A DNA stretch of 64,000 bases from Bacillota bacterium. Its GTDB lineage: Bacteria; Bacillota; Sulfobacillia; JAJZYS01; JAJYTV01. This document shows positions 1-60,550 of the stretch, in pieces; position 1 is the first letter of the stretch; the number at the start of each line of letters is the position of its first letter. The stretch is from positions 31,415-95,414 of the forward strand of contig JAJZQO010000001.1 in the NCBI GenBank assembly GCA_021847575.1. The letters run 5' to 3'. The translations under genes were made by a program, and so were the position numbers. The notes beneath the pieces are model-generated. The model did no database searches and was not told where the DNA came from. It saw only the letters and a program-made list of their open reading frames with translations.

Positions 1-412
1 CGTCGACCCCCTTGGTCTTCGCGCGCAGGGCCTGACGCCGGCTGATCACCTCGGTGTACACGAGGCCGCCGCTATCGTGCACGGTGTCCACGATCAGCGC
101 CGGGTCGCCGAGCGACGTGAAGAAGAAGCGCACACCGTGGTCGAGGCAGATCGCGAGCTGTTCCCGATAGGGAAAGCGGCCGGAAACATGGACGTCGACG
201 GCGATCGGCCTCGCGGTGCGGCTGCGAATGCGTCCGAGGGCGGCCTCGAGCGCCGCCAGCGTGCGGTAGTTGGGCAGAGGGAAGGCCCCGAGCCCGCCCG
301 CTTCGGACACGGCGACGACGAGATCCTCATAGGAGACGAGGAACATCGGCGCGCCGACAATCGGATATGTGATGCCGAGAAGACGACTGAAGGCCGTCTC
401 AATCCGGGCCAC
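1..412 (-). CDS. Nitronate monooxygenase (2-nitropropane dioxygenase/FabK-like) family protein, N-terminal part. The gene continues past the window start.
   Basis: Own translation of the minus strand from a GTG at 412: ...LLGITYPIVGAPMFLVSYEDLVVAVSEAGGLGAFP... matches the classic NMO N-terminal motif. No stop occurs before position 1. A GGGGAGG RBS sits 7 nt upstream of the GTG. The gene is not in the supplied ORF track because it is unterminated. Confidence 0.6.
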   Translation of the reverse strand, partial: MARIETAFSRLLGITYPIVGAPMFLVSYEDLVVAVSEAGGLGAFPLPNYRTLAALEAALGRIRSRTARPIAVDVHVSGRFPYREQLAICLDHGVRFFFTSLGDPALIVDTVHDSGGLVYTEVISRRQALRAKTKGVD

Positions 413-438
413 GCCGCCACCTCCCCTGCGCTTCGCCC

Positions 439-1878
439 TTACGCCTCGCGTGGCACCTGTGCGATTTCCTCGACCAGTGCCTTCGCGTTTTGGAGGATGC
501 GCCGCGCCTCAAAGAAGATCGTCATGCGCTGCGCCATCAGCGAGCCCTCGCCCTGCAGCACGATGGTCTCCAGTTCCGAACGCGTGAGGCGCCGGATCAG
601 GTCGAGCATGCGCAGGCGCGCCTCCGTCGGGATGCCGGCCTTGCCACCGAGATACTTCTCGATGTCGGGCCGCAGTTCATCGCGCTGCCAGTCGGCGTAG
701 GTGGTGGCCGTCACGAGCACTCCGCCCGCGAGGTCCTCGATGATCTTGACCATGTCGTGGTAACGGTCGGCAAAGTGGAACTTGGCGAGGTTCGTCAGCA
801 TTGGGCTCGGCACGGCGACGCCGTCGTGCAGGGTGTAGTCGAGGCAGGAGGCGCGCGCCAGACCCTTGAGCGTCTCGAGGTAGATGACCATGTCCGTGAG
901 CTTTTCCACGACGTGCGGCGCCTTCGCGACGCCGTTGTACTCGGCGATCGCCTGGGCGACTCCGACCAGCTGCTCGCTCATCGGGATGCGGTAGGCGACG
1001 CCGGTGCGGCGGTGCAGGAGCGCGAAGCTGTGCACGAGGGTGTTGGATGCCTGCCACTCGCCGTCGAGGAAGACCCGCTCCCACGGCACGAAGACGTCGT
1101 CGAAGATCACGAGCGACTCGGTATGGACGCGCACCGGGCGTGTGTTGGGAAACTCGAGCGACGAGATCCTGGAATGGAAGGGCCGCAGGATCTGGCGCAC
1201 CCCGGGCTGGTTGCACGGTACGGCGAAGGCGAGCGCATAGTCCTTGTCCGCCTCTCCCATCGTGCGACAGGGGATGACGAACATCTCGTGCGCATAGGCG
1301 GCGCCGCTGATGTGCGTCTTCGCACCGCGTACGACGATGCCGTCCGGCCTGCGCTCGACGACGTGAACGTAGTAGTCCTCGTGCGCCTGGCCGGGGTCCG
1401 AGGGCCGGAGCATGCGATCCCCCTTGACATCGGTGACGGCGGCGACCACGGCGAGGTCGTTCTGACGCAGGTAGCGGCCGTAGGCCCCGATGCGGTCGAT
1501 GTAGTCCTGACTGCCCAGGCGACGAGCCGTGATTTCGATCGCGCTCAGCACGTCCGCGCCGATGTCCTTCGCGAACGGTATGAAGCCATCACCAAGGCGC
1601 GTGCCCGCCACGATCAGCTCCTGGTGCAGCAGGAGGTCATCGCCGTTGCGGGGGATATGGTAGTAACGACTCTGCTCCTCGCCGGTCTCGGGGTCGCGCA
1701 CAACGCCGAGATGGCGCAGCTCCCCGTGCTCAGGCAGCTCGTAGTCGACGGCCATGGTGTCGACGCAGACCCTGATGTCGGGATCCAGGGTTACGTCCTC
1801 GATGCGACGCCCCTTGTACCAGACCTCGCGACCGTCGCGCAGGCGCTCCCGGTATTCGTCGGCCGTCATCAGTGCCAC
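439..1878 (-). CDS. HpaB (4-hydroxyphenylacetate 3-hydroxylase oxygenase component) / 4-hydroxybutyryl-CoA dehydratase (AbfD) family flavoprotein.
   Basis: 479-aa ORF whose length and sequence character fit the HpaB/AbfD superfamily. GTG start with an AAGGAGG RBS 7 nt upstream. The stop lies 10 nt after the start of the upstream gene, suggesting one operon. Confidence 0.6.
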   Translation of the reverse strand: MALMTADEYRERLRDGREVWYKGRRIEDVTLDPDIRVCVDTMAVDYELPEHGELRHLGVVRDPETGEEQSRYYHIPRNGDDLLLHQELIVAGTRLGDGFIPFAKDIGADVLSAIEITARRLGSQDYIDRIGAYGRYLRQNDLAVVAAVTDVKGDRMLRPSDPGQAHEDYYVHVVERRPDGIVVRGAKTHISGAAYAHEMFVIPCRTMGEADKDYALAFAVPCNQPGVRQILRPFHSRISSLEFPNTRPVRVHTESLVIFDDVFVPWERVFLDGEWQASNTLVHSFALLHRRTGVAYRIPMSEQLVGVAQAIAEYNGVAKAPHVVEKLTDMVIYLETLKGLARASCLDYTLHDGVAVPSPMLTNLAKFHFADRYHDMVKIIEDLAGGVLVTATTYADWQRDELRPDIEKYLGGKAGIPTEARLRMLDLIRRLTRSELETIVLQGEGSLMAQRMTIFFEARRILQNAKALVEEIAQVPREA

Positions 1879-1890
1879 GATGCAGCCTCC

Positions 1891-3456
1891 TTAAAGGTCC
1901 TTGGGGATGCCCTGGTGGTAGGGCGGGAAGATCTCCTGCTCGAGGTTCGAGCCCATCAGGCTGTCGACGGCCATCACGCCGGAGAGGGTGGCGCCGTCGA
2001 CACCGCCGCCGAGTAGCCGCCTGCCGTACTGGTCGCCGACCAGGTACAGGCCGTTGACGTACGGACTCCGGTTGTCGAGGCGCTCCTCCCCGACCGGTCG
2101 CCACTGCCCGTAGGCGTCGGGCGCCGGCGTCCAGATGCAGAACTCGACGTCCCGCTCCCAGACGCCCGGGAAGGTCTCCTTGAACCAGTTCTCACACCAA
2201 GCTTTGATCCGCCCGACACGCTCGCGACTGTGCATCTCCTGGTCGGTGAGGCCGATCGAGAACTCGAAGCTTCGCTTGCCCGCTGGCGCGCGCGTCGGGG
2301 CGCAGGCCCCCATGGCCCAGACGACGACGTCGACGTCGCCGATGAAGCCCTCGTTGCGGATCGCCCCTGGCAGGAAGATGAAGCTGCGTTCGTCGATGCC
2401 GCGTTCGGCCCAGATGTCTCGGGTGAGGCCGATAAAGGCGGTGAGGAGGCCCGCGCCCCAGTACCGCTGCTCGATCGTCTCGACGAGGTCGGGCGGGAAA
2501 AGCGAGCGGTCGAGGACGTGAAACAGCTGTTTTGGCATCATGTTGAGGAAGACCGTGGCGGCCCGCGCCGTCTCCGTGCCGCCATCTCCCCGCATGCGCA
2601 CGCCCTCTACGCGGCCGCCTTCCACCAGCACCTCCGTGACGGTCGTCGAGCGGCGCACTTCGCCGCCCGCGGCGCGGATGACGCGTTCGAGCGCCTGTGC
2701 GATCGCGACGGCACCTGGCCGGTCGACCGTGCCGCAGGAGCCGTCGACGAGGTTCATGCGGATGTCCTTCGCCATCGCCATGTAGTAGAGGAAGTCCGCG
2801 GCCGGCGTCATCGAGAGATCGGCCTGCGCTGTTTGCGAGGCGGAGAGCGCCTTGATGTAGTCGTAAGCCTGCGGGTGGAGATCGAACTGCCTCAGCCAAT
2901 CCTCGAGCGAGACATCCTTGTAGCGCGCCACCTCGGCGACGCTCATCCTGCCCATCGCGCGCATGGCGTTCATGGCCGAGGCGAAGGCTTCCTCCGACAT
3001 CCATGGGTACGGCTGACCGCGCCCCACCTGATAGGGCACGTTGCCATGCTCGTGGTCGACGAAGCCGAAGCCGACATTGCACGGGATCTCCACGTGCTCG
3101 CCGACGTGGCCCAGGAGGTGGGCGATGCGGCTGCGGTTGCCCCAGAAGAGGCCGTGGCCGCCTGCCTCGTAGGTGTAGCCGTCAAGGAGGCCGCGCTCAA
3201 AGACCTCCTCGATCGGCGGCTCGCTGCTGAAGAGGTGGGTGCTGGCCACGCCAAGCGCCTTCTGCATTCCGGTCGCATCCAGTTCGAGGCCGTCGATCTC
3301 AACCTTCTGCCCGACGCCTACGAACGAGGCGAGCCGCCCCCCGATGAAGGGTGCGCGCTCCAGCACGAGGACCTTCTTGCCGAACTCCTTCGCGAGCAGT
3401 GCCGCTGACGTCAGGCCCGCGACGCCGCTGCCGACCACGATCACGTCGTACTCCAT
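1891..3456 (-). CDS. NAD(P)/FAD-dependent oxidoreductase of the phytoene-desaturase (CrtI)-like amine-oxidase fold.
   Basis: N-terminal Rossmann motif MEYDVIVVGSGVAGLTSAALLA...VLVLE. 521 aa. GGAGG RBS 9 nt upstream of the ATG. Confidence 0.65.
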   Translation of the reverse strand: MEYDVIVVGSGVAGLTSAALLAKEFGKKVLVLERAPFIGGRLASFVGVGQKVEIDGLELDATGMQKALGVASTHLFSSEPPIEEVFERGLLDGYTYEAGGHGLFWGNRSRIAHLLGHVGEHVEIPCNVGFGFVDHEHGNVPYQVGRGQPYPWMSEEAFASAMNAMRAMGRMSVAEVARYKDVSLEDWLRQFDLHPQAYDYIKALSASQTAQADLSMTPAADFLYYMAMAKDIRMNLVDGSCGTVDRPGAVAIAQALERVIRAAGGEVRRSTTVTEVLVEGGRVEGVRMRGDGGTETARAATVFLNMMPKQLFHVLDRSLFPPDLVETIEQRYWGAGLLTAFIGLTRDIWAERGIDERSFIFLPGAIRNEGFIGDVDVVVWAMGACAPTRAPAGKRSFEFSIGLTDQEMHSRERVGRIKAWCENWFKETFPGVWERDVEFCIWTPAPDAYGQWRPVGEERLDNRSPYVNGLYLVGDQYGRRLLGGGVDGATLSGVMAVDSLMGSNLEQEIFPPYHQGIPKDL

Positions 3457-3488
3457 CCGCCTTTGCCTCCTTGCCTTTCCTGCGCGAA

Positions 3489-4253
3489 CTAGAGAGAGCC
3501 GCCGCCGTCCATCACGACCGCCTGGCCCGTCACGTACAGGGCCGCGTCCGACACGAGGTAGAGGATGGTGCGCGCCACCTCGTCCGGCTGGGCGATTCGC
3601 TTCAGAGGTGTGTGGCTCAGCTCCTCTGCCATCAGATCCGCGTTGCGCCAGAGCGCTTCGCTGAACCGCGTCTGCACCACACCCGGCGCGACCGCGTTGA
3701 CCCGGATGCCCTTTGGCCCGAGTTCCTTGGCCATCGCCTTCGTAAGCATGAGGATCGCGGCCTTGCTGACGCAGTAGATGCCAAGGCCAGGATCGGGGGA
3801 GATGCCGCCGATAGAGGCCACGTTGACGATGTTGCCGGCGCCCTGCTCGACCATCTTGCGGGCGATGAGCTGGCTGAGGAGGAAATAGCCCTTGACGTTC
3901 GTCGTCATGATCTGGTCGTACGTCTTCTCCTCGACATCGAGCAGGGGGGCCATCACCGGGTTCGTCGCCGCGTTGTTGACGAGGATGTCGACACGACCGA
4001 ACTCGCCCAAAACCGTAGCCGCAAGTCGCTCGATGTCCGCCGCCTCGCGGTTGTGCGCCTGTACCGCGAGGGCTCTCCTGCCCAGAGCGCGGATCTCCTC
4101 CGCCACCTGTTCCAGGTCCGGAAGCTTCCTGCCGCTGATGGCGACATCCGCCCCGGCCCCGGCCAGGGCGAGCGCCGTGGCGCGACCGATGCCGCGGCTG
4201 CCGCCGGTGACGAGCGCAACCTTGCCTGCCTGTTCGAGATAACTGAAGTCCAT
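3489..4253 (-). CDS. SDR-family short-chain dehydrogenase/reductase.
   Basis: TGGSRGIGRA glycine motif, NNAA motif and catalytic YxxxK (YCVSKAA). 254 aa. GGGAGGG RBS. Confidence 0.8.
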   Translation of the reverse strand: MDFSYLEQAGKVALVTGGSRGIGRATALALAGAGADVAISGRKLPDLEQVAEEIRALGRRALAVQAHNREAADIERLAATVLGEFGRVDILVNNAATNPVMAPLLDVEEKTYDQIMTTNVKGYFLLSQLIARKMVEQGAGNIVNVASIGGISPDPGLGIYCVSKAAILMLTKAMAKELGPKGIRVNAVAPGVVQTRFSEALWRNADLMAEELSHTPLKRIAQPDEVARTILYLVSDAALYVTGQAVVMDGGGSL

Positions 4254-4272
4254 GCTTGGTTCCCTCCCGCTT

Positions 4273-5394
4273 TCAGAGGCCGATCTGTCGCGCGATGATG
4301 TTCTTCTGGATCTCCGACGTACCGCCGCCGATCGTCAGCACGAGCACGTTGCGCAGGTGGCGCTGCATGTCGGCTCCCGATTCCGCCCCCTCGCCGCCGA
4401 GGAGGTCCATGCCCTGCACCGCGAGGCGCTTGCCCGTGTCGGTGGCGAAGTACTTGGCCATCGAGGCCTCGCGGCCGCACGGCAGCCCATCGGCTTCCAG
4501 CCGCGCCGCGGCGTAGGCGAGACTCCTTGCGGCCTCAAGTTCGGTCGCCATCTCGGCCACGCGGTGCTGCACGCCTTGCGGCGCGCCGCCGGGGAATCTG
4601 CGCCGCACATGCTCGATGGCATCCTCCAGCACTGCCCGGCCGATGCCAACGGCACAGGCGGCGAGCGTCAACCGCTCCTGGTTGAGCAGCCTGACCATGT
4701 GTTCCCAGCCGTGGCCGATGCCCTCCGGCCCGCCGAGGATGTGTTCAGGCCCTACCCGGACGCCCTCGTACGAGACGGCGCACGTGTTCGAGCCGCGGTA
4801 GCCGAGTTTCTGGAGCTCACGCGCGCTGTAGCCAACGGCCCGAGTGTCGACGATGAAGGCGGTGATCCCCCTGTAGCGGTCCTCGGAGGTGCGCGCCATT
4901 GTCAGCACGTAGTCGCTTACACCGGCGCCGGTGATGAACATCTTGCGTCCGTATATGCGGTAGCCGTCCCCGTCCCGCTCCGCTCGCGTCTTGAGGCTGG
5001 CGGCGTCGGAGCCGGAATCCGGTTCCGTGAGGGCGAAGCCGAACTTGATCTCGCCCCTTGCCAACCGCGGCAGGTAGGTGCGGCGTTGCGCTTCGCTGCC
5101 GCTCTTGCCGATGATCTCGCCACCGTAGAGGCAGATGTTGCCGACCACCCACGCGAGGACCGGCAGGCGACGCGAGATCTCCTCGTAAAGCGCCATGGCG
5201 TCCAGGATGTTGCCACCCCAGCCACCGTACGCCGGGTCGATGTTGATGCCCATGTACCCCTCCGCCACGAGCGCCGCAAGCGGTTCGGAGGGGTAGCGGT
5301 CCTCGGCGTCGATCGCGCGTACCAGTTCGAGCGGGAGGTGCTCCTCGACGAAGGACGCGGTCGTTTCGCGGATGGCTTTGAGGGCCTCGGGCAT
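4273..5394 (-). CDS. Acyl-CoA dehydrogenase.
   Basis: Acyl-CoA-dehydrogenase-like sequence throughout (for example the C-terminal ...TIGGGTSEIQKNIIARQIGL). The track ORF is N-extended; ATG at 5394 is chosen because GGAGG lies 7 nt upstream and it gives a typical 374-aa length. Confidence 0.75.
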   Translation of the reverse strand: MPEALKAIRETTASFVEEHLPLELVRAIDAEDRYPSEPLAALVAEGYMGINIDPAYGGWGGNILDAMALYEEISRRLPVLAWVVGNICLYGGEIIGKSGSEAQRRTYLPRLARGEIKFGFALTEPDSGSDAASLKTRAERDGDGYRIYGRKMFITGAGVSDYVLTMARTSEDRYRGITAFIVDTRAVGYSARELQKLGYRGSNTCAVSYEGVRVGPEHILGGPEGIGHGWEHMVRLLNQERLTLAACAVGIGRAVLEDAIEHVRRRFPGGAPQGVQHRVAEMATELEAARSLAYAAARLEADGLPCGREASMAKYFATDTGKRLAVQGMDLLGGEGAESGADMQRHLRNVLVLTIGGGTSEIQKNIIARQIGL

Positions 5395-7074: not shown

Positions 7075-8667
7075 ATGAGCAGGATCACAGTCCTCGCGGG
7101 CGGCACCCTGGTCGACGGAACAGGAAGCGCGGCCCGTCACGCGGACGTCTGGCTGCAAGGCGGAGAGATCGTCCGGATTGTCGAGGGCGGCGGGGGGCAC
7201 CCAGAAGGCCTGGACATCGTGGACTGCACGGACCTTGCCATCGCGCCCGGCTTTATCGACGTGCATTCGCACGCGGACAACGCCGGTTATCTAGCGACGG
7301 CGGACACGAGCAAGATCCTGCAGGGCGTGACGACCGAGGTCGTGGGCAACTGTGGCATCTCGCTTGCTCCGCGGACCTTGCCCCATCGCGTAGACCTGGA
7401 CAATTACGCACAGCGCCTGTTCCCCGTGGTGGACTGGCAGGGCGAAAGCTTCACAGAGTACTGGGCGGGCGCCGAGCGCGGCCTTGTGACCAATGCCGCT
7501 CCCCTCGTCGGGCAGGGCACGCTGCGGATCGCGGCGATGGGCATGGAGAACCGGCCCCCGTCCGCGGCGGAGAAAGCCAAGATGCGCGACCTGCTGCTTG
7601 CGGCCCTGGAAGCGGGGGCGTTCGGCCTCTCCACGGGGCTCATCTATCCCCCGGGCAGCTTCTCAGAAACCGAGGAGATCGCAGAACTGGCGGGCCACAT
7701 GCCGGACGGGATCTACGCTTCGCACCTGCGGGACGAGGGTGAGAACGTCGAACGGAGCGTCGCAGAGGCGATCGCGATCGGCGAGGCGGCAGGCTGCCAG
7801 GTGCAGCTGTCGCACCACAAGGCGGCAGGCAAGGCGAACTGGGGCCGCACGGAGGCCACGCTGGCCATGGTCGACGCGGCTCGCGAGAGGGGTGTGCGGA
7901 TCCACCTCGACGTGTATCCCTACACGGTAGCCTCGACGGTTCTGACGTCGTGTGTGCCGCCGTGGGCCGAGGCGGGCGGTGAAGCGGCCCTGCTCCAGAG
8001 GCTCGAAGATTCCGGAGCGCTCGGGCGGCTGCGCCGGGATATCGAACAGGGCCTGCCCGGTTGGGAGAATGAGATCGCCGCAACGGGCGCGGACGGCATC
8101 CGGATCGCCTCGACGCAGGACCACCGGTTCGAGGGGTCGACGCTTGCGGAGATCGCGGCCACCATCGGCGGCGACGGCATAGACGCACTGTTCCACGTCC
8201 TGCGGGAGGAGCGGCTGCGGGCCAGCATCCTGCTCTTCTCGATGACCGAGGGCGACGTGCAGCGCGTCCTGCGCCACCCGCTGGCCATGATCGGTTCGGA
8301 CGGCCTGCCGCCCGGTCTGGGCGGCAGGCCGCACCCGAGGCTCTACGGGACGTTCCCGAGGGTCTTGAGCCGCTATGTGCGCGAGATTCCCGTGCTCACG
8401 CTGGAGGCGGCGGTGCACAAGATGACGGGCCTGCCGGCCGCGGCGTTCCGACTCGCCCGGCGCGGGGTGGTGGCCGAGGGCAACATGGCGGATCTTGTGG
8501 TCTTCCGGCCCGGGAGCATCAGGGATGGGGCGACGTTCGAGGACCCGGTGCAGGCCCCGCTTGGGATTGAGCGCGTTTATCTTGGCGGCAGGGCTGTCGT
8601 GGTGGAGGGTCGGTATGTGGGCAATCGCCAAGGCGAGCGCCTGCGGCCGACAGGCGGCCTACGCTGA
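7075..8667 (+). CDS. N-acyl-D-amino-acid deacylase (D-aminoacylase) family amidohydrolase.
   Basis: 530 aa. Metal-binding motifs typical of the family: ...APGFIDVHSHAD... and ...VVGNCGISLAP... Confidence 0.75.
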   Translation: MSRITVLAGGTLVDGTGSAARHADVWLQGGEIVRIVEGGGGHPEGLDIVDCTDLAIAPGFIDVHSHADNAGYLATADTSKILQGVTTEVVGNCGISLAPRTLPHRVDLDNYAQRLFPVVDWQGESFTEYWAGAERGLVTNAAPLVGQGTLRIAAMGMENRPPSAAEKAKMRDLLLAALEAGAFGLSTGLIYPPGSFSETEEIAELAGHMPDGIYASHLRDEGENVERSVAEAIAIGEAAGCQVQLSHHKAAGKANWGRTEATLAMVDAARERGVRIHLDVYPYTVASTVLTSCVPPWAEAGGEAALLQRLEDSGALGRLRRDIEQGLPGWENEIAATGADGIRIASTQDHRFEGSTLAEIAATIGGDGIDALFHVLREERLRASILLFSMTEGDVQRVLRHPLAMIGSDGLPPGLGGRPHPRLYGTFPRVLSRYVREIPVLTLEAAVHKMTGLPAAAFRLARRGVVAEGNMADLVVFRPGSIRDGATFEDPVQAPLGIERVYLGGRAVVVEGRYVGNRQGERLRPTGGLR

Positions 8668-8757
8668 GAGGGGCCGGGGCAGGGTGTTCCAGATGAATGG
8701 CAGGAAGGGCGAAGCGTCTGTCCAATTAACCTAACGAGCGTTCGGCAGGGGGGCGGA

Positions 8758-9360
8758 ATGCTGATGGAGGAGCCGCAGGTTGGCACCCGCGAGCGACTCC
8801 TGGAGCTGTCGGCGCAGCTGTTTCGAGAGCGGGGCTTCCACGCCACCTCGATGCGCGACATCGCTCGAGCGGCACACATGCAGCCGGCCTCGATCTACCA
8901 CCACTTCCCTGGCAAGGAAAGCATCCTGCACGAGCTGATGCGCGGGTTTCTCATGGAACTGCTGCACAGCGCCGCAAACGCGTCCGACCAGGCCGCGGAC
9001 GCCACCGGGCGGCTTGCGGCCTTCATGCGAACCCACATCCGCCTGCACGCCACGCGGGCCATGGTCGCACTTGTCACCGATTCGGAGCTGAGGGCACTCA
9101 AGGACCCAGCGCGGCGGGAGGTCGTCATGCTGCGGGACCGCTATGAGCAGCTCCTGCAGGACATCCTGCGCCAGGGCGTCCAGGAGGGCCTGATGTACGT
9201 ACCCGACGTCAAGATTGCGAGCTACCAGCTTCTGGCCCTGGGTACAGGCGTCGTGTTCTGGTGGCGACCGGATGGTCGCCTCAGTCTTGAGGAGATCGTC
9301 GAGCAGCATGTCGGGGCCGCTTTTGGCATCTGCGGCGTGGGTCGGGGCAAACGTGGATAA
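8758..9360 (+). CDS. TetR/AcrR-family transcriptional regulator.
   Basis: N-terminal helix-turn-helix RERLLELSAQLFRERGFHATSMRDIARAA. 200 aa. Confidence 0.8.
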   Translation: MLMEEPQVGTRERLLELSAQLFRERGFHATSMRDIARAAHMQPASIYHHFPGKESILHELMRGFLMELLHSAANASDQAADATGRLAAFMRTHIRLHATRAMVALVTDSELRALKDPARREVVMLRDRYEQLLQDILRQGVQEGLMYVPDVKIASYQLLALGTGVVFWWRPDGRLSLEEIVEQHVGAAFGICGVGRGKRG

Positions 9361-9373
9361 GGGGAGATGCCCG

Positions 9374-10393
9374 GTGGGGTTGCCGTTCGGGATAGCCAGG
9401 TCGCTCAGTCCGAGAGGAGCTCTGCCGATCGATGCGGAGCGGCTCGACAGTAGTGGAGATGCCCGCGCGGACGAACTCGAGATCGCCGTCGCGGAGCTCC
9501 TGATCAGCTCGACCGCGTTTCGCCAGCTCATGGGCGCCAGCGATCCGGCGCAGCGCATTCGCGACATCGTGGCTGGCGAAGGCCGCTTTCGCGATCCCGT
9601 GACTGGGGCGGGCGGCGTCCTGCTGGGACGCATCGCGACCGTGGGAGAGAGCTTCCGCTCGGATCCCCAACCGCGCGGCGGGGAGCGGATTGTGACGCTG
9701 CTTTCCCTGGCGTGCACACCGTTGCGCCTCGATGCGGTGCTTGGCATCGACAACCTGCGCATGGCCGTGCAGGTTCGGGGGACCGCATTCCTGCCGCAGG
9801 GCGCGCCCTGGATCGAGCCGCCCGCCGCCCTGGCGGACAACGTTGCCCTCGCCACCCTCGACGTCTGCGGTGCCCCCGCGCACGCCCATCGCCTGGCGCG
9901 CCCGGGCGAAGACATCCTTGTGCTCGGGGCGGGCAAGGCTGGGGTGCTCACGGCACTGGCCGCTATCGAGAGCGGGGCCAACGTGATGCTCCTTGAAGGT
10001 CGCGCCGCGCGGCTCGAGGCGGTGCAGGCCGTGTTGCCGCTTGCGGGGGCCGCCGTCGTTGACGCGACAGAGCCTTTGGCGGTGCATGAAGTGGTGGGTC
10101 GCTTGACTGGCGGCCGTGGCGCCGCGCTCACCTTCTCCTGCGTCAACGTCGCGCGCGCGGAGGCCTCGGCCTTCCTTGCGACGCGTGACGGGGGCACCGT
10201 CGTCTACTTCTCGATGTCGACCGACTTCGCGCGCGCCGCCTTGGGGGCCGAGAGCGCGCAACGCGACGTCACCATGGTGATCGGCAACGGGTTCGTGCCT
10301 GGCCACGCCGCCTACGCGCTCGATCTCGTGCGCCGTCATCCCGAAGTCCACCAACTGCTCGGTAACAGTGGGAAGGGAGGCGATGCGAACTAG
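9374..10393 (+). CDS. kdd: L-erythro-3,5-diaminohexanoate dehydrogenase (Kdd), a lysine-fermentation enzyme.
   Basis: About 340 aa with a GxGxxG Rossmann motif (LVLGAGKAGVLTALAAIESGANVMLLEG), co-located with kal and kce. GTG start at 9374 is chosen because GGGGAG lies 6 nt upstream and it avoids overlapping tetR; the track start at 9215 lies inside tetR. Confidence 0.65.
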   Translation: MGLPFGIARSLSPRGALPIDAERLDSSGDARADELEIAVAELLISSTAFRQLMGASDPAQRIRDIVAGEGRFRDPVTGAGGVLLGRIATVGESFRSDPQPRGGERIVTLLSLACTPLRLDAVLGIDNLRMAVQVRGTAFLPQGAPWIEPPAALADNVALATLDVCGAPAHAHRLARPGEDILVLGAGKAGVLTALAAIESGANVMLLEGRAARLEAVQAVLPLAGAAVVDATEPLAVHEVVGRLTGGRGAALTFSCVNVARAEASAFLATRDGGTVVYFSMSTDFARAALGAESAQRDVTMVIGNGFVPGHAAYALDLVRRHPEVHQLLGNSGKGGDAN

Positions 10394-10431
10394 GCGGTGC
10401 GAACCGGCTCAAGGATTAGGGGAGGTGTTCT

Positions 10432-12015
10432 TTGTTGTCGGTACAGGGGGGGAAGCTCCGCAGGGAGCTGCGCATCCGCGATCTCTTCTTCGCGAACATG
10501 GCGGGCATCATCGGCTCAGGATGGCTGTTCGGGGCCATCTACGCCGCCAACATCGCCGGCCCGGCGTCGATCCTGGCGTGGCTGATCGGCGGGCTGCTCA
10601 TGCTGGTGCTGGCACTCGTCTATGCAGAGCTGGGCGGCATGCTGCCGAAGCCGGGCGCGCTCGTCCGCTACCCGCAGTTCTCCCACGGTAGCCTGGTCTC
10701 GTTCATCCTGTCCTGGTCCGTCTGGATCGCGTATGCCACGGTGGCTCCGCTCGAGGCGGAAGCGTCCGTGCAGTACGCGTCCTACTATTTCCCGGCCCTG
10801 GTGCATGGTAGCTCGCTGACTCCGGTCGGGCTGGTCACAGCGGCCCTGCTCGTCGTTCTCTTCTTTGTCCTCAACTACTTCGGCGTCAAGCTTATGGCGC
10901 AGATCAACGGAATTGTCACGGCGCTCAAGATCATCGTGCCGGTACTGACGATCGTGGTTCTGCTCTTTGTCGGCATGCATCCGGCGAACTTCGGCCACTA
11001 CGGCGGCTTCATGCCGGGCGGGACAGCCTCCATCCTCTCGGCCATCACGGTCAGCGGCATCGCGCTGTCCTACACGGGTTTCCGGCAGGCCATCGACTTG
11101 GCCGGCGAGGCGAAGAACCCTGCCCGCGACGTGCCGCGGGCAGTCATCGCCTCGATCCTCGTGACGATTGTGATCTACACCTTGCTCGAAGTGGTGTTCG
11201 TCGGCGGACTCACGCCCGCCGCGCTCGCGCACGGCTGGGCGAATCTGAGCCTCTCGTCGCCGTTCGCCGACCTTGCCCTGGCGCTGAACCTCGGCTGGCT
11301 CGCGACGATCCTGTTCGGCGACGCAGTCGTCTCGCCGTCCGGTACCGGCCTGATCGCCACCGCCAGCACGGGGCGCGTCGTCATGGCGATGGTGGCCAAC
11401 GGCTACGCTCCATCGAAGCTGGGTGAGACCCACCCACGCTACAAGGTCCCGACTCCCGCGCTTTGGGTGAACCTCGTGATCGGCATCCTGTTTCTTCTGC
11501 CGTACCAGGGCTGGGCGTCGCTCGTGACGATCGTCTCATCGAGCACGATTCTCAGCTATATCCTCGGACCGGTCAGCGCCGCCGTCCTGCGTCGCACCGC
11601 CGCCGACATCAAGCGGTCCTACACTGTGCCTGGCATGTCCTGGATCGCCCCGCTCGGCTTCGTCATCGCCACCCTGATGATCTTCTGGGCGGGCTGGCCG
11701 CTTGTCGGGCAGCTGCTGATCGCGATGGCGGTGGGCCTGCTGGTCTACGCGTACTACTTCGCGCGCGGCAGCTTCCCGAGCGCGCACCTGCGTTCGGGCG
11801 CCTGGCTCGTCGGCTACCTGGTGTTCATCGGTCTCATATCCTGGGTTGGTTCTTTCGGTAGCGGCTTGAAGGTCATTCCCTACCCTTGGGATATGGTGGT
11901 TGTCATCATAGGATCGCTCGCCTTCTTCTACGCGGGTGTCCACAGCGCGCTGCCGCTGCCGGCCGACTCGCCGTACCGTAAGGAGCTGGCGACAGGCGAA
12001 ACCCCTTCCGACTGA
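10432..12015 (+). CDS. APC-superfamily amino-acid permease; lysine/beta-lysine/diaminohexanoate importer is suggested by context only.
   Basis: 527 aa, about 12 TM segments. Amino-acid/polyamine/organocation (APC) permease signature FANMAGIIGSGWLFG. TTG start with a GGGGAGGTG RBS. Confidence 0.7.
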   Translation: MLSVQGGKLRRELRIRDLFFANMAGIIGSGWLFGAIYAANIAGPASILAWLIGGLLMLVLALVYAELGGMLPKPGALVRYPQFSHGSLVSFILSWSVWIAYATVAPLEAEASVQYASYYFPALVHGSSLTPVGLVTAALLVVLFFVLNYFGVKLMAQINGIVTALKIIVPVLTIVVLLFVGMHPANFGHYGGFMPGGTASILSAITVSGIALSYTGFRQAIDLAGEAKNPARDVPRAVIASILVTIVIYTLLEVVFVGGLTPAALAHGWANLSLSSPFADLALALNLGWLATILFGDAVVSPSGTGLIATASTGRVVMAMVANGYAPSKLGETHPRYKVPTPALWVNLVIGILFLLPYQGWASLVTIVSSSTILSYILGPVSAAVLRRTAADIKRSYTVPGMSWIAPLGFVIATLMIFWAGWPLVGQLLIAMAVGLLVYAYYFARGSFPSAHLRSGAWLVGYLVFIGLISWVGSFGSGLKVIPYPWDMVVVIIGSLAFFYAGVHSALPLPADSPYRKELATGETPSD

Positions 12016-12078
12016 AACGCCCCGCCGCCGGGCTGGCCCGTGCCAACCCGGCGGCCTGGGCCGGATGGAGGCTGTGCT

Positions 12079-12471
12079 TTGCAGGTCAAGACCACCCTGC
12101 GCATCGGGGCCGCGGACGCGCACTATGGCGGCGGCCTCGTGGACGGTGCGTATCTGCTCAAAGTGTTCGGCGATCTCGCGACCGAAATCTGCATCCGCCA
12201 CGATGGCGACGAGGGGCTCTTCCGCGCCTACACCTCGGTGGAGTTTCTCGCGCCACTGCGCGCAGGCGACTTCGTCGAGGTCACTGCGGAACTCGTCTCT
12301 GCCGGGCGCACCTCGAGACGCCTCCGCTTCGCAGCGGTCAAGCTGATCGCGGCCAGACCGGATCTCGGCCCATCCGCGGCGGATGTTCTAATGCAGCCTG
12401 TCCAAGTTGCGACGGCCGACGGCGTCGTTGTGGTTCCGCTGGCCTGTCAGCGCCTGGGAGGCATATCATGA
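12079..12471 (+). CDS. kal: 3-aminobutyryl-CoA ammonia-lyase (Kal), hot-dog fold.
   Basis: LRIGAADAHYGGGLVDGAYLLKVFGDLATEICIRHDGDEGLFRAYTSVEFLAPLRAGDFVEV matches the Kal family (DAHYGG ... DGDEGLF ... VEFLAP). TTG start at 12079 with a GGATGGAGG RBS 6 nt upstream. About 130 aa. Confidence 0.75.
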   Translation: MQVKTTLRIGAADAHYGGGLVDGAYLLKVFGDLATEICIRHDGDEGLFRAYTSVEFLAPLRAGDFVEVTAELVSAGRTSRRLRFAAVKLIAARPDLGPSAADVLMQPVQVATADGVVVVPLACQRLGGIS

Positions 12472-12475
12472 CATT

Positions 12476-13294
12476 ATGGATCCCCTGATCATCACAGTCG
12501 CCCTGACGGGTGCCGAAGTAACTCCCGCGCAGCAGCCGCATCTGCCGGTGACGCCCGCCGAACTGATCGATGCCGCCGTCGCGTGCCGCGCGGCCGGAGC
12601 CGCGATGGTGCACCTGCATGTGCGTGCGGCGGACGGCACGCCCTCCTCGAACCCCGACCTGTTCCGCGAGGCGGTGGCTGGCATCCGGGCCAGGACGGAC
12701 CTCATCGTGCAGGTGTCGACGGGTGGCGCCGTGGGCATGTCCGAGGTGGAGCGCCTGAATGGTCTCACCGCGCGCCCCGATATGGCGAGTCTGACACCGG
12801 GCACGGTCAACTTCGGCACGGAAGTGTTCTGGAACCCGCCTGATCTGGTGCGGCGCTTCGCCGAGCGCATGCGGAGCCTAGGCGTCGTGCCCGAGATCGA
12901 GATCTTCGACCACGGCATGCTGGCGACCGCCGTGAAGCTGCAGGCGGAAGGTCTCCTGTCCTCCTCGGCGCATTTCGACCTTGTTCTTGGCGTGCCGGGC
13001 GGGGCTCCGGCCGATTTCGAGACAGCGATGCTGCTTATGCGCAAGCTGCCACAGGCCTCCACCTGCAGCATCGCGGCGGTCGGCAGGAACCAGCTGCCGC
13101 TCAACGTCTTCGCGATCCTGTCTGGCGCACATGTGCGCACAGGCTTCGAGGACAACATCTATTACGCCCCCGGACGCAGGGCGGCGTCGAACGCCGAGCT
13201 CGTCGCACGCATCGCACGCATCGCCTTCGAGCTCGGACGCCCGCTGGCGACCCCGGCCGAGGCGCGCTGGATCCTGGGATTGACCGGCAGGTAG
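12476..13294 (+). CDS. kce: 3-keto-5-aminohexanoate cleavage enzyme (Kce; BKACE/DUF849 family).
   Basis: MDPLIITVALTGAEVT...HLHVRAADGTPS...IVQVSTGGAVGM...EIEIFDHGM...FDLVLGVPGG...GFEDNIYYAPGRRAASNAELVARIARIAFELGRPLATPAEAR gives a near-diagnostic match to Kce. 273 aa. Confidence 0.85.
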   Translation: MDPLIITVALTGAEVTPAQQPHLPVTPAELIDAAVACRAAGAAMVHLHVRAADGTPSSNPDLFREAVAGIRARTDLIVQVSTGGAVGMSEVERLNGLTARPDMASLTPGTVNFGTEVFWNPPDLVRRFAERMRSLGVVPEIEIFDHGMLATAVKLQAEGLLSSSAHFDLVLGVPGGAPADFETAMLLMRKLPQASTCSIAAVGRNQLPLNVFAILSGAHVRTGFEDNIYYAPGRRAASNAELVARIARIAFELGRPLATPAEARWILGLTGR

Positions 13295-25582: not shown

Positions 25583-26842
25583 ATGCTGCCGATGGCGCCG
25601 GGCGGCGCCGATGTGCGACTGCCGCTCGCGCATCTTGCCTTCGGCCTTCTGGCGAGCGTGGTGCTGGCGGCGTGCCTGCTCGAGCCCGGCTGGGCCACAT
25701 ACGGTCTGCCGGGCTCGACGTCGACCGTCGTGCTGACGCATCTTTTCACGCTCGGCTGGGTGACGGCCACCACGATGGGGGCGATGCTGATGATCGTGCC
25801 GGTGGCCGGCGTGGCCAAAGTGCCGGCGGGACGGTTTGCGCTGCTCGTCCCAGGCGCGACTTTGCCCGGCATCGTGCTGATGCTCCTCGGTTTCGGCCTG
25901 GGCCTGAATTCGCTCCTGGCCGTGGGCGGCAGCCTTGTCGTGATCGGCGTGCTGGCCTTCTACCTGATCCTCTGGCGCACGGTGGCGGGGGTGACCGTAC
26001 CGTCCCCGACCCCCGCCGGAGCGCTCATCGCATCCTCCTTTCTCGTGCTTACCGTCCTGCTCGGCCTGACCGAGGCCCTGAACCTGAGCTACGGCTTCTG
26101 GCAGTTCCCCTTCATGCGTTTCCTGGCGCTCCACGCAGCCCTTGGCGGCTTCGGCTGGGTCGCGTTCGCCATACTCGCTGTAAGCTACAAGCTGGTCGCG
26201 ATGTTCACCCTGTCGCACGAGCACGAACGCTATCCCAAGGCCGTCTTCGCGCTTTGGGGCCTGGCTGTGCTCTGGGCGGGCGCCATGGCGATCTGGGGCA
26301 CCGACGCCCTCGCGGCGCTGGCCGCGCTGCCGGCGCTCGCCGCCTACGCCCTCTTTATCGCGGACATGCGCCTGCTGCTTTCGGCCAGGCAGCGACCGAT
26401 CGAGCCGGGCATCCAGCAGGCGATCGTGAGCTGGATCGTGCTCGGCATCCTTCTGGTTGCCATTCCGCTGCAGCTTCTCGGCGTCTTCCAGGTCTCGATC
26501 TTCGCCTTCGCCTGGCTTTTCGTCTTCGGCTTTGCCGGGGCGAACCTCTGGGGCTTCCTGTTCAAGATAGCGCCGTTTCTCATCTGGTTTCACAGCTACG
26601 CCGAACTCGCCCCGGGCAGGCGGGCGCCGAAGCTGACCGAAATGGTCGGTCCCAGGTACCTGCGTGCCGGTAGCTGGCTGCTTTACCCTGCGATCCCGCT
26701 CGGCGCGATCGGCCTCGCGGCAGGGTATCCGCTCGCCGTTCAGGCGGCAGACCTGCTCGCGCTCCTCGCCGCTCTCGCCTTCGCCGCGTCGGGCTGGCGC
26801 CTTACGGTCCACTATCTCGGCCGGGCGCAGGCGGGCCGGTGA
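25583..26842 (+). CDS. Polytopic membrane protein of about 12 TM and unknown family. NnrS-like (NO-response heme-copper membrane protein) is suggested by context only.
   Basis: 419 aa, hydrophobic throughout. Conserved-looking His/Trp positions: THLFTLGW, LHAALGGFGW, SHEHERYPK, WFHSY. Begins 4 nt after the DUF2249 stop. Confidence 0.5.
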   Translation: MLPMAPGGADVRLPLAHLAFGLLASVVLAACLLEPGWATYGLPGSTSTVVLTHLFTLGWVTATTMGAMLMIVPVAGVAKVPAGRFALLVPGATLPGIVLMLLGFGLGLNSLLAVGGSLVVIGVLAFYLILWRTVAGVTVPSPTPAGALIASSFLVLTVLLGLTEALNLSYGFWQFPFMRFLALHAALGGFGWVAFAILAVSYKLVAMFTLSHEHERYPKAVFALWGLAVLWAGAMAIWGTDALAALAALPALAAYALFIADMRLLLSARQRPIEPGIQQAIVSWIVLGILLVAIPLQLLGVFQVSIFAFAWLFVFGFAGANLWGFLFKIAPFLIWFHSYAELAPGRRAPKLTEMVGPRYLRAGSWLLYPAIPLGAIGLAAGYPLAVQAADLLALLAALAFAASGWRLTVHYLGRAQAGR

Positions 26843-28041
26843 ACAGCTCGCCCCTGATCGTCACGCCGCGCACCGCGCCGCCGCCGCACGTCGTGCTGCG
26901 CCCGATCGCGGCAGGCCTGGGGGCGCTGATTCTCGCGGGGAGCTGGGTGGCATGGCTTGGCCTGCCGACGGGCACTCCGCTCCTCTCGCTCATCCACCTG
27001 GGCTTTGTCGCAGGTCTCCTCACCTTGGCGAGCGCCGCCGCGACCCAGCTCGGAGCGGCGACCACAGGCCAGTCCCATCCGCGGCCGGGGCTGCTCGGCG
27101 GCTTCGCACTCGGGGTTCCGGCCGGGGGCGCGCTGCTCAGCGCGGGCTTCGCATTTGGCGCGCCAGTCCTTCTGGCCATAGGCGGGGCCTTGGCCTTCAC
27201 GGGCGTTGCCTTTGTCTTCGGCCACGCGCTGCGCCGGATCGGACGAAGCGGGTCCCTGCGCCCGCTTCACGTCGGCCTCCTGCTCGGCCTCGTCGGCTTC
27301 CTGGCTGCGGCCGCCATGGGGTTTGCAATGGCGCTGGGCCTCACCCTCGGACACCCGTCGCTCCTCGGGCTCCTGCCCTGGCACCTCGCACTCGCCCTCG
27401 GCGCCGGCTTCGGTGCCTTGCTCGCGGGCGTCTCGTGGCAGCTTCTGCCGATGTTCGGGCGTGCCCGCCAGGTGCAGGGTCCACTCGGCTATTTGCCGGC
27501 TGGGGCGTTCGCCGCGGCGGCCTTGCTCGGCGCCATCGCCTGGGGGCGGATCGGCATTGGGGCTGCGTGGCTCCTGGCGATTGCGGCGGCCATACACCTT
27601 GCGATCACCGTGTGGTCCCTGGCGCGCGGCGCAGGCGCAAAACTGCCGCCCTTCACAGGGCTCGCCCATCTCGCATCCGCCGCACTGCTCTGCCTGGCCA
27701 CGCTGCTCTTCGTCAGGGGTCTCTACGGCGACGCGCTGCTGGCCGCGTTCGGCGGCTACACCATCGCGATCCTGGGCTATCTCGAGCGCATCCTGCCCTT
27801 CATCGTGTTCGAGGCCCACCTCAACCGCCGCACCGGGCGGACGAAGGTACCGAAGCTGCAGGACATCCTGCCCGCTAAAGGCCGCCATGTCCTGCTTGCC
27901 GCATACCTCGCGGCACTCGTGCTGGCTTTGGCCTCCAGCTGGGGGGTCCGTCTCTTCGGCGTCGCCCTTGCTCTCATGGCCCTGCGCCTCCTTCTTGCCC
28001 TGCGGAACCTACCGCCAGGCACTTCAGGATCCGCAGAATGA
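26839..28041 (+). CDS. Paralogue of the preceding polytopic membrane protein.
   Basis: Start overlaps the upstream stop (GTGA). Aligned segments: HLALALGAGFGALLAGVSWQLLPMF versus HAALGGFGWVAFAILAVSYKLVAMF, and ILPFIVFEAHLNRRTGRTKVPKL versus IAPFLIWFHSYAELAPGRRAPKL. Confidence 0.5.
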   Translation: MNSSPLIVTPRTAPPPHVVLRPIAAGLGALILAGSWVAWLGLPTGTPLLSLIHLGFVAGLLTLASAAATQLGAATTGQSHPRPGLLGGFALGVPAGGALLSAGFAFGAPVLLAIGGALAFTGVAFVFGHALRRIGRSGSLRPLHVGLLLGLVGFLAAAAMGFAMALGLTLGHPSLLGLLPWHLALALGAGFGALLAGVSWQLLPMFGRARQVQGPLGYLPAGAFAAAALLGAIAWGRIGIGAAWLLAIAAAIHLAITVWSLARGAGAKLPPFTGLAHLASAALLCLATLLFVRGLYGDALLAAFGGYTIAILGYLERILPFIVFEAHLNRRTGRTKVPKLQDILPAKGRHVLLAAYLAALVLALASSWGVRLFGVALALMALRLLLALRNLPPGTSGSAE

Positions 28042-28254
28042 AGACCGCAATATTTACGGTTTGGCAAGGCAAAGAGGGATAGGTTACCTGTGATGGTGCC
28101 CCATGGGGACTGCTTTAGGTTCTTCGGCTCTTCATGATAAAAGGAACTTTCCGACCGAGGGCGAACTCTCGCATCTGTATTTTCTACTTCCTGTCTCGTT
28201 ATCGGAATGAGGGGCCATCGCAGTTGCGGGGGGGCGAACTGCTTCTTTCCCCAC

Positions 28255-29976
28255 ATGGACGCCGACATTTGGTTGGAGATTCGGGAAGACATGACCCTTG
28301 CCGCCGTGTTTCAGCCCATCGTCTCGCTTGCGCATGGGCGCGTCGCGGCGTATGAAGCCTTGAGCAGGCCTACGCTCGGGCGGGAGCAACCGCTTGCGAT
28401 CCTCGATGTCGTGGAGTCGGCGAGGGCAGCCGGACCGCACGCCGAGGCCGAGCTCGATGGCCTCGCCATTACCGCGATCGCCTCAGCCGCCCGCCACCTG
28501 CCGACGGGTGCCATGCTGTTCGTCAACGTGGCGCCGGTCACCGTGCTCGAACAGCCGGAGCTTCTGCAACCCCTCGCGGAGCTGCCTTGTACCGTGGTGC
28601 TCGAGGTGACGGAACGCTCGACCGTCCCGGACACCCGCTGGCACGTGTTCACGCACTCCCTCGACATACTGCGCTGGCGCGGGTTCCTTGTTGCCATGGA
28701 CGACTGTGGTGCGGGCTATTCCGGACTCAATCGGCTGGTGGCGCTCAGGCCGGATTTCGCCAAGGTGGACATGGAGCTCGTGCGCGGTGTCGATCGTGAC
28801 AGCGCCAAGGCGCAACTGGTGGCAGCCCTGGTGTCGTTCTCGCGGCGTGCGGGCATCACGGTGATCGCGGAAGGCGTGGAGACCCGGGCGGAGCTCGAAA
28901 CCCTGAGCGAACTCGGCGTCGACTATGTGCAAGGTTTCCTGCTCGCAAGGCCGGAAAGTGGCTTCGCCGAGACAGAGGTCATGGTGGGACGACAGGGCAA
29001 GCGAAGAAACGCGAGCGATGCAGGCGCCGCGCTCGGCGCCGCCATGCGTCTCGCGCGCATGGCCGTGCGCGGGCTGGGCGACGCGCCGGGTCTTTACGAG
29101 GCGATCGTCCATGCCGCGCGCGACGCCACCGGGGCTGACGCGGCAGTGCTCCGTAGGCGCGTGGGGCAGACGCTTGAGCCTGTGGCCACTTCGGGTGCGC
29201 CACTGCGGCCGCGCGCGATCCCCCTTTCGTCCGGCGACCCGCTGGCCGCCGCGTTCGGCGCGGAGCGCAGCGCGACGCGCCAGACGCACCCGCCGGACGG
29301 CGCCGACAGTGCCTACGGCTCCGCATTCAGCGCTCCTGTCGTCGTGGACGGGGTTGCCTGGGGAGTGCTCACGGTCGGGTTTCAGGAGGAGAACCGCATC
29401 CGCGGCGAGCTGGCCGACCTCGCGACGGGCCTTGCCGATCAGGCAGGCCTCATCCTGGCGGCCAATCAGGGGGGACTCCTGCCGCTGCGGACCGACGCCA
29501 TCGACACGCTTCGCTATGCGGTGCAGCACCCCGGAGACATCTCGGACTTCCTTTCGCGTATCATCCGCGACGTGGAACGTTCGACAGGCTCCCACGACTG
29601 CTGGATCGGCATCGCCCGCGACGGGCGGTTCGATATCATCAGCGGTGACGGCGACGTGGCGGAGACCGAGCTCGCCCAGTGGCTGGATCCCGAGAGCGAG
29701 ATGGGGCGCATGCCGCCTGGCGTTTCGCTGCGCGAGGCCAGACGCGTGATCGTCGACGACATCCGGCTCGAGCCGTCCCTCGCGTCGCAGCTTGAGGACC
29801 TCCTGCAGCAGGCCATCATCTCGGCGGCGGCGATTCCGATGATCAGCCACGAGCGCGTCGTCGGCATTCTTAAGGTCTATCACAGTACAGTGGCGGCCTT
29901 CACCGAGGACCAGCTGACCTTTCTGGAAGAAGTCGCGTCGCTGCTGGCCGACTACCTCGGCCGTATGGCGGCATAG
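28255..29976 (+). CDS. EAL-domain c-di-GMP phosphodiesterase with C-terminal tandem GAF domains.
   Basis: EAL hallmarks AYEALSRP...VLEVTERS...MDDCGAGYSGLNRL...VIAEGVETRAELETLSELGVDYVQGFLLARP, then about 330 aa of GAF-like sequence. Start ATG is 28255 or 28291. Confidence 0.75.
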   Translation: MDADIWLEIREDMTLAAVFQPIVSLAHGRVAAYEALSRPTLGREQPLAILDVVESARAAGPHAEAELDGLAITAIASAARHLPTGAMLFVNVAPVTVLEQPELLQPLAELPCTVVLEVTERSTVPDTRWHVFTHSLDILRWRGFLVAMDDCGAGYSGLNRLVALRPDFAKVDMELVRGVDRDSAKAQLVAALVSFSRRAGITVIAEGVETRAELETLSELGVDYVQGFLLARPESGFAETEVMVGRQGKRRNASDAGAALGAAMRLARMAVRGLGDAPGLYEAIVHAARDATGADAAVLRRRVGQTLEPVATSGAPLRPRAIPLSSGDPLAAAFGAERSATRQTHPPDGADSAYGSAFSAPVVVDGVAWGVLTVGFQEENRIRGELADLATGLADQAGLILAANQGGLLPLRTDAIDTLRYAVQHPGDISDFLSRIIRDVERSTGSHDCWIGIARDGRFDIISGDGDVAETELAQWLDPESEMGRMPPGVSLREARRVIVDDIRLEPSLASQLEDLLQQAIISAAAIPMISHERVVGILKVYHSTVAAFTEDQLTFLEEVASLLADYLGRMAA

Positions 29977-30151: not shown

Positions 30152-34144
<3,993 letters not shown>

Positions 34145-58658: not shown

Positions 58659-58665
58659 GAGTTTC

Positions 58666-58741: not shown

Positions 58742-58765
58742 AGTTGCGCTCCAGCAGCTTCCGGA

Positions 58766-59012: not shown

Positions 59013-60550
<1,538 letters not shown>

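Follow-up and report, generated by a model that had tools for sequence, protein, structure and literature searches.

The question raised by the DNA described here is how genes for the lower part of lysine fermentation are supplied with substrate where the aminomutase genes (kamA, kamD and kamE) are not beside them. The DNA is a stretch of 64,000 nucleotides from a Bacillota bacterium (GenBank assembly GCA_021847575.1, contig JAJZQO010000001.1, positions 31,415 to 95,414 of the forward strand), hereafter the window, with a G+C content of 66%. It contains a partial lysine-fermentation cassette, tetR-kdd'-apc-kal-kce, in which the lower-pathway trio (a kdd-like dehydrogenase gene, written kdd', with kal and kce) is joined by genes for an APC-superfamily permease and a TetR-family regulator, with no adjoining aminomutase genes. 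We regard the cassette as an uncommon but conserved form of the lower lysine-fermentation module that includes an importer, and no paper on kam-less kdd-kce-kal cassettes was found in the literature searched. We give about an even chance to the reading that the cassette is a self-contained, repressor-controlled, import-fed route for a beta-amino acid, most likely 3,5-diaminohexanoate or a close analogue.

According to this reading the permease would import the direct substrate of the Kdd-like enzyme, most likely 3,5-diaminohexanoate (some stereoisomer) or a very close analogue, and neither lysine nor beta-lysine. The Kdd-like enzyme would oxidize C3 to yield 3-keto-5-aminohexanoate, Kce would convert the aminobutyryl part and acetyl-CoA into acetoacetate plus 3-aminobutyryl-CoA, and Kal would eliminate ammonia to yield crotonyl-CoA, with general beta-oxidation completing the route. 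The TetR protein would repress via a palindrome before tetR, and release would probably be brought about by a CoA-thioester intermediate. In this scheme we infer what is imported, in which direction the permease works, where the repressor binds and what releases it. A preliminary description of the window, made from the letters alone, had proposed a salvage variant importing beta-lysine or 3,5-diaminohexanoate directly; the latter is retained as the best reading and the former is not, since Kdd, Kce and Kal cannot use beta-lysine directly. On chemical reasoning, oxidation and cleavage of beta-lysine would lead to 4-aminobutyryl-CoA, which is not processable by a Kal-type beta-elimination. Import of beta-lysine is unlikely unless KamDE is encoded elsewhere.

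The genes named in the preliminary description were all found, in the order that it gave, on the plus strand. The intergenic spacing across the cassette is 13, 38, 63 and 4 nt, short gaps that are consistent with a single operon extending from tetR to kce, and the operon lies wholly inside the window with unrelated genes on either side. The tetR gene is located directly upstream of kdd' as described, although the gap is 13 nt and not 14 nt, and position 7075, which had been given as the start of the module, is the start of an amidohydrolase gene and not of the cassette.

The absence of aminomutase genes was evaluated by tblastn with KamA, KamD and KamE of a canonical Clostridiaceae cluster as queries, the identity of which was checked by Pfam. 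No matches were obtained across the 64-kb window, and Pfam scans of its other long open reading frames revealed no LAM_C, Lys-AminoMut_A or OAM_dimer domain. These remaining frames encode sensory, nitrogen-assimilation and housekeeping functions and are accompanied by an rRNA operon. The absence reported in the preliminary description was therefore confirmed by both searches. The same description had reasoned that kam genes just outside the window, in the same operon, would make this the ordinary pathway; the 10 kb before the window contain beta-oxidation-type genes only, so that no kamA, kamD or kamE is present from ~17 kb upstream to ~51 kb downstream of the cassette.

The cassette is not confined to one assembly. 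At least 12 contigs, belonging to several assemblies, encode identical proteins, and the tetR-kdd'-APC-kal-kce order is also found in two further related lineages (L007 and L008/L009) in which the Kdd-like protein is 82% and 79% identical, respectively, to that of the window. In a fourth lineage (L094), represented by a partial contig, a cut gene fragment is followed by a permease gene (82% identical), a 113-residue open reading frame and a BKACE gene. The surroundings differ in L007 and L008, where GerA-type spore-germination and AlkZ-like genes lie upstream of the cassette and thioesterase, NUDIX and methyltransferase genes downstream, and no kam genes were detected in the 9-10 kb upstream or 5-7 kb downstream. 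These comparisons indicate that the five-gene arrangement is a conserved unit and no single-genome accident, in agreement with the earlier view of a lower module that has its own permease and is controlled by a TetR regulator. The reading frames are intact in the three lineages and the ratios of nonsynonymous to synonymous substitution rates (dN/dS) of the five genes are 0.07-0.34, indicating that all five are under purifying selection. The missing aminomutase genes and the highly diverged dehydrogenase are features expected of a decaying, non-functional remnant of a former lysine-fermentation cluster; however, the selection analysis contradicts decay, the substitutions that set this clade of dehydrogenases apart are conserved, and the regulator, an operator-like block and the permease have been retained, leaving a remnant highly improbable.

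The canonical cluster (kamA, kamDE, kdd, kce, kal), said to have been described by Kreimeyer in 2007, occurs in Fusobacterium, Clostridia, Bacteroidales and 'Candidatus Cloacimonas' and combines the same three lower-pathway families in one operon. The window differs from it in the absence of kamA, kamDE, the reactivase/MutS-like genes and the CoA-transferase, in the inserted permease, in a dehydrogenase that falls outside the curated Kdd equivalog, and in a host that is probably an aerobe, with cytochrome oxidase. The lysine-fermentation pathway has been described together with a variant in which 3-aminobutyryl-CoA aminotransferase (Kat) takes the place of Kal (PMC3149608). The Kat variant is, as is the window cassette, a natural variant of the lower pathway, although it retains kamA/kamDE and replaces Kal, the reverse of the situation in the window. 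Sediment Thaumarchaeota with only kal/kat have been proposed to scavenge lysine-fermentation intermediates (PMC8397731). That proposal resembles the one made here in that a non-fermenter with only the tail of the pathway obtains intermediates from outside; however, the Thaumarchaeota genomes are without kdd, kce or a linked transporter, whereas the window encodes a three-enzyme module with an importer and a regulator.

In order to place the cassette among its relatives, 160 Kdd loci from many phyla were collected in two contig scans, of which 61 were flanked by at least 7 kb on either side. A kamA, kamD or kamE gene was present in 52 of the 61 well-flanked loci of other organisms, and none of the other Kdd loci compared contained a homologue of the window permease beside kdd. 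Since kam genes adjoin most Kdd loci, an import-fed, 'salvage' reading is the best for the window. Several complete clusters start with a TetR gene, for example those of a Desulfobacterales metagenome-assembled genome (MAG; L018) and a metagenome contig (L123), which have the order TetR-kdd-kamA..kamD-kamE-kal-kce; in these two, kdd comes immediately after the gene for a TetR homologue (32-36% identity), and the 3' end is taken by kal-kce, ordered as in the window. In contrast to these loci, a single APC permease gene stands in the window where the kamA..kamE block would be, and the aminomutase block looks to have been exchanged for an importer.

The same sample bears on a second explanation, that the permease imports L-lysine for standard degradation split between loci, with KamA/KamDE encoded elsewhere in the genome and the cassette supplying the lower half. 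The remaining nine of the 61 well-flanked loci also have no kam genes nearby, which shows that unlinked arrangements exist, and spore-forming Bacillota commonly carry homologues of lysine 2,3-aminomutase. However, three lineages hold the permease at the position of kamA..kamDE in complete clusters and have no kam genes in the flanks compared, the gene for the B12- and PLP-dependent lysine 5,6-aminomutase is absent from the 74 kb examined, and a split pathway leaves unexplained why the dehydrogenase is the most diverged of its whole family. We judge the split pathway possible at perhaps one chance in four.

Only one other locus joined kal-kce-kdd to an uptake system in the absence of aminomutase genes, that of an Anaerolineae MAG (L043; CAYGWJ010000492.1, 8800-18000). 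It encodes PucR-kal-kce-kdd-FMN_bind_2 together with a Liv-type ABC uptake system (a binding protein, two permeases and two ATPases) and a class-III aminotransferase. As in the window, lower-pathway genes accompany an uptake system and no aminomutase gene is located within 10 kb on either side; the gene order, the PucR regulator and the ABC transporter are different. This comparison suggests that import-fed forms of the lower pathway originated on more than one occasion, and they are rare. A further kam-less Kce-Kdd locus (L104) has no adjacent transporter.

The Kdd-like protein contains both PF26370 (KDD_N) and PF00107 (MDR-type Rossmann) domains and is matched over its full length (residues 2-324, E=1.6e-47) by 3,5-diaminohexanoate dehydrogenase of PDB entry 7dl3. 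Glu310 and Gly323 contact the cofactor in the Cloacimonas 3,5-diaminohexanoate dehydrogenase (PMC9902596); both are kept in the 7dl3 alignment as E293 and G306 of the window protein. Membership in the family is accompanied by marked isolation within it. The mean identity of the clade containing the window protein to other family members is 36%, compared with 59% among those members, and an exhaustive HMMER search of 1.84 billion cluster representatives recovered a single clade representative, at 65% identity and 396 bits; the next score was 226 bits, and no other match exceeded 46% identity. A scan of metagenome contigs with a clade-only alignment produced no additional clade members, the matches (at most 49% identity) being canonical loci only. 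The most conserved peptides of the family, RGK[ML][HQ]NP[VE]T and FFSMAT[SDN]F, are unmatched in the window protein. The dN/dS of kdd' is 0.14-0.18.

The lyase is more conventional. Kal scored 167.3 bits with the NCBIfam 3-aminobutyryl-CoA ammonia-lyase equivalog (cut-off 160), compared with 169.6 bits for the L007 protein and 181-191 for canonical proteins, upholding the earlier identification, and the AADAHYGG and DGDEGLF motifs cited for it were seen in the translation. It is up to ~66% identical to Kal of kam clusters and retains 47 of 54 family-conserved columns.

The PF05853 (BKACE) domain covers residues 3-269 of Kce with 334.5 bits. The protein scored 362 bits with the NCBIfam KCE model, for which the cut-off is 382 and canonical Kce proteins score 397-463, and 261 bits with the next-best model, 3-oxoadipate:acetyl-CoA acetyltransferase. 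This margin is ~100 bits compared with 150-210 for canonical proteins. The top PDB match was the Cloacimonas Kce (2y7d, 258 bits; runner-up 200). These results favor the true Kce group over any other BKACE subfamily, with a score 20 bits short of the equivalog cut-off; the preliminary description had named a grouping with a different subfamily as contrary to its proposal. Residues H46, H48 and E230, reportedly described by Bellinzoni in 2011 as zinc ligands, and E14, S82, E143, R226 and D231, likewise reported as active-site residues, are identical in the alignment with 2y7d. Kce is up to ~58% identical to Kce of kam clusters and retains 67 of 74 family-conserved columns; Q58 and G218 of Kce and C117 of Kal, invariant in their families, are altered in the window. 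Mean identity of the clade to other members was 54% for Kal (70% among the others) and 48% for Kce (56% among the others). Judged from these comparisons, Kal and Kce are conventional members of their families, or close to it.

The permease, presumed to be the substrate importer, was matched by Pfam AA_permease_2 (146.7 bits) and AA_permease (115.7 bits). No NCBIfam subfamily cut-off was reached, the scores being 189 for TIGR00909 (cut-off 557) and 140 for BcaP (cut-off 690). It shares 91-92% identity with its L007 and L008 counterparts, and its gene, with a dN/dS of 0.07-0.08, is the most constrained of the cassette. The closest solved structure is that of GkApcT (97 bits), a homologue of the CAT-type cationic amino-acid transporters, a relationship which counts in favor of L-lysine import and the split pathway. 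Outside the cassette, the most similar proteins (50-54% identity) come from Sulfobacillus, Alicyclobacillus, Thermaerobacter and Desulfotomaculum and bear the annotation amino acid or aspartate:proton symporter.

Two of the permease relatives were found in other contexts. One (L092) adjoins an ABC exporter and a TetR gene. Another (P0149, 53% identical; L093 1-10736, GCA_021793215.1 contig JAJYTE010000025.1) is flanked by genes for a class-III aminotransferase and for a DAO-type oxidase and lies beside a divergent IclR operon with genes for a semialdehyde dehydrogenase, CoA-transferase A/B, an omega-aminotransferase and a thiolase. By analogy, this context is a weak hint that the permease clade may serve catabolism of non-alpha amino acids.

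The TetR protein contains PF00440 (TetR_N, 66 bits) and a PF17932 ligand domain (94 bits), and shares 68-73% identity with its counterparts in L007 and L008 (dN/dS 0.24-0.34). Homologues (31-38% identity) precede kdd in complete, kam-bearing clusters. Immediately 5' of tetR, 31 of the 32 positions in a block at 8719-8750 are identical across three lineages, and the neighbouring intergenic DNA is unalignable. The block encloses an imperfect palindrome, CCTAACGAGCGTTCGG, at 8730-8745, whose reverse strand matches with three mismatches and which occurs once in the window; no significant folding of the block as a single strand was obtained. The pattern of conservation makes the block a candidate operator for autoregulation of tetR. 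KstR2 and Bacillus FadR sense acyl-CoA. Since the nearest solved relatives of the TetR protein include both of these acyl-CoA responders, a CoA-thioester intermediate is, by analogy, a plausible inducer.

Several observations weigh against the import-fed reading. The Kdd-like protein scored 127.8 bits with the NCBIfam Kdd equivalog (NF052381), far under the curated cut-off of 200 bits. In 62-66 of ~68 full-length family representatives the residues Q19, D45, S48, K71, N74, S79 and D251 (numbered as in the window protein) are present, and all four clade members carry I/M19, S45, A48, R71, D74, A79 and A/H251 instead; as judged from the alignment the dehydrogenase may not use L-erythro-3,5-diaminohexanoate. 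The Kce proteins of the clade, with 362-373 bits, are all under the cut-off of 382, and as to the transported substrate, the permease clade carries only aspartate or amino acid:proton symporter annotations. The absence of kam genes is established for 74 kb plus the flanks of L007 and L008 only. To our knowledge, neither a pool of free 3,5-diaminohexanoate nor a source of it in the environment has been documented. Finally, a scan around the operon revealed no sigma-70-like promoter or intrinsic terminator above chance.

The dehydrogenase results qualify the earlier identification of the first enzyme as Kdd. Membership in the family is supported, although the score and the replacement of seven near-universal residues do not support assignment to the equivalog, and the alignments indicate a diverged subfamily that stands apart within the 3,5-diaminohexanoate dehydrogenase family and is no safe Kdd equivalog. 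The other clade members scored 105-117 bits with NF052381, compared with 209-279 for kam-linked Kdds and 193 for the Anaerolineae Kdd, which shares the clade substitutions T47, D74, V82, V107, A189 and D284 and, unlike the window protein, keeps Q19, S48, K71, S79 and D251. Since the seven substitutions are fixed within the clade, they look like maintained change and not decay, and they may have a functional meaning.

The substitutions raise a third explanation, in which the specificity of the Kdd-like enzyme has changed and the cassette degrades a beta-amino acid other than L-erythro-3,5-diaminohexanoate, for example a different stereoisomer, a 3-hydroxy-5-aminohexanoate or a 3,5-diamino acid of lesser or greater chain length, to which Kce and Kal would also have adapted. 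In addition to the seven shared substitutions and the low scores of the clade (105-128 vs 209-279 for canonical proteins), the Kdd-like proteins are mismatched at 23-28% of family-conserved columns (at least 90% conserved), for which the family median is 2% and the 95th percentile 7%, while Kce is just below its cut-off with the narrower margin over the 3-oxoadipate family and, together with Kal, has altered family-invariant residues. Conversely, Kal is above its equivalog cut-off, Kce has kept the aligned metal-binding and catalytic residues, the mismatches of Kal (11-13%) and Kce (7-9%) at conserved columns are inside the range of kam-linked homologues, and D251 is probably away from the substrate pocket according to the layout of the Rossmann fold. 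We consider such a change in the pathway rather unlikely, at about one chance in five, and the narrower proposal of a naturally re-tooled beta-amino-acid dehydrogenase with its own substrate, a beta-amino or diamino acid brought in by the dedicated importer, in an undescribed aerobic route joining the Kce and Kal steps, is put forward with the same reserve.

L-Erythro-3,5-diaminohexanoate dehydrogenase is the only beta-amino-acid dehydrogenase reported, with a strict specificity that needed engineering (PMC9902596). If its specificity has indeed changed, the window enzyme would add a second natural example to a class of enzymes with one reported activity, and a selectively kept natural subfamily in which seven near-invariant residues are replaced is a candidate for new substrate scope in biocatalysis. 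If the import-fed reading is correct, the tail of lysine fermentation would be a stand-alone catabolic module in aerobes, and 3,5-diaminohexanoate or a related beta-amino acid would pass between members of communities, for example from lysine fermenters to respirers in compost-like habitats. The case speaks against labelling such genes as lysine fermentation or butyrate production in metagenome surveys, and the name Kdd should be given to the first enzyme of the window cassette only after an assay.

Table 1. Positions of the cassette genes, the conserved block and other features of the window.
Feature	Position	Strand	Match or remark
HpaB/AbfD-family flavoprotein	439-1878	-	189 bits on HpaB-1, cut-off 480
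Amine-oxidase-like FAD protein	1891-3456	-	
SDR	3489-4253	-	
Acyl-CoA dehydrogenase	4273-5394	-	
Amidohydro_3 / D-aminoacylase / N-acyl-D-glutamate deacylase-family protein	7075-8667	+	PDB 3gip 324 bits, 1m7j 300 bits
Conserved 32-nt block TGTCCAATTAACCTAACGAGCGTTCGGCAGGG	8719-8750	+	5' of tetR; candidate TetR operator
tetR, TetR-family regulator, leading gene of operon	8758-9360	+	Pfam TetR_N, TetR_C_24
kdd', Kdd-like NAD(P)-dependent dehydrogenase, GTG start	9374-10393	+	Pfam KDD_N; PDB 7dl3
apc, APC-superfamily amino-acid permease, presumed substrate importer	10432-12015	+	Pfam AA_permease_2
kal, hot-dog-fold lyase	12079-12471	+	NCBIfam Lys_ferment_KAL; alternative GTG start 12040
kce, BKACE protein	12476-13294	+	Pfam BKACE; NCBIfam KCE; PDB 2y7d
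Two genes for large polytopic membrane proteins	25583-28041	+	419 and 400 residues
Signalling block	28141-35232	+	
gltB, glutamate synthase large subunit	41331-45812	-	NCBIfam 1554 bits
Lysine riboswitch aptamer	45927-46098	-	Rfam RF00168, 116.6 bits, full-length
Complete rRNA operon with the tRNAs ahead of it	58585-63978	+	
Two tRNAs ahead of rRNA operon	58585-58738	+	
16S rRNA	59014-60540	+	
Two tRNAs	60643-60799	+	
23S rRNA	60844-63822	+	
5S rRNA	63862-63978	+	

The genes on the 5' side of the cassette (Table 1) were also considered as parts of the route. The preliminary description had suggested that the D-aminoacylase-family protein feeds acylated substrates to the cassette, a role without comparative support: the gene is absent near the cassette in L007 and L008, where the AlkZ-like and GerA genes are found instead, and it is probably no part of the cassette; a functional link was rejected for want of conservation. 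The minus-strand genes at 1-5394 include, as described, those for an acyl-CoA dehydrogenase and an AbfD/HpaB-like flavoprotein; their suggested role in processing crotonyl- or butyryl-CoA was not sustained. They open a long beta-oxidation-type operon which runs ~10 kb past the start of the window (L090/L091 11467-21440) and there encodes NMO, a FadB-like hydratase/dehydrogenase, thiolases and two acyl-CoA ligases, as well as a further ACAD and ChsH2-like proteins. This operon is not conserved with the cassette, and a functional link between the two was rejected.

The GltX protein encoded in the window shares 78% identity with that of a MAG bearing the label Thermaerobacter sp. and 66% with that of an Alicyclobacillus. 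Subunits of cytochrome c oxidase are encoded in the window, consistent with aerobic life. Judged from the sequence, the host is probably an uncultured, heat-loving, high-G+C, aerobic, spore-forming member of the Bacillota near Thermaerobacter.

Other regions of the window showed features of their own. The lysine riboswitch aptamer is located 115 nt upstream of the gltB start codon, and no paper linking a lysine riboswitch to gltB was found in the literature searched. The intervening spacer is predicted to form a strong hairpin between GCCUCUCCUC (45858-45849) and GAGAGGAGGGGC (45828-45817) that buries the ribosome-binding site (minimum free energy -60.5 kcal/mol, z = -3.1). The same strand continues 3' of gltB with amt, a YkuD-like gene and a gene for a DABA-decarboxylase-like PLP enzyme. 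The 59% G+C and positive skews at the end of the window are due to the rRNA operon, where short-read MAG contigs bearing the cassette appear to end. The two adjoining genes for polytopic membrane proteins, of which the 419-residue product had no Pfam match, coincide with a strong negative AT skew (-0.35) resulting from the hydrophobic composition of the proteins. The signalling block encodes an EAL-GAF protein, a hybrid histidine kinase of 1356 residues in which four PAS and two receiver domains are combined with an Hpt domain, and a receiver-GGDEF diguanylate cyclase.

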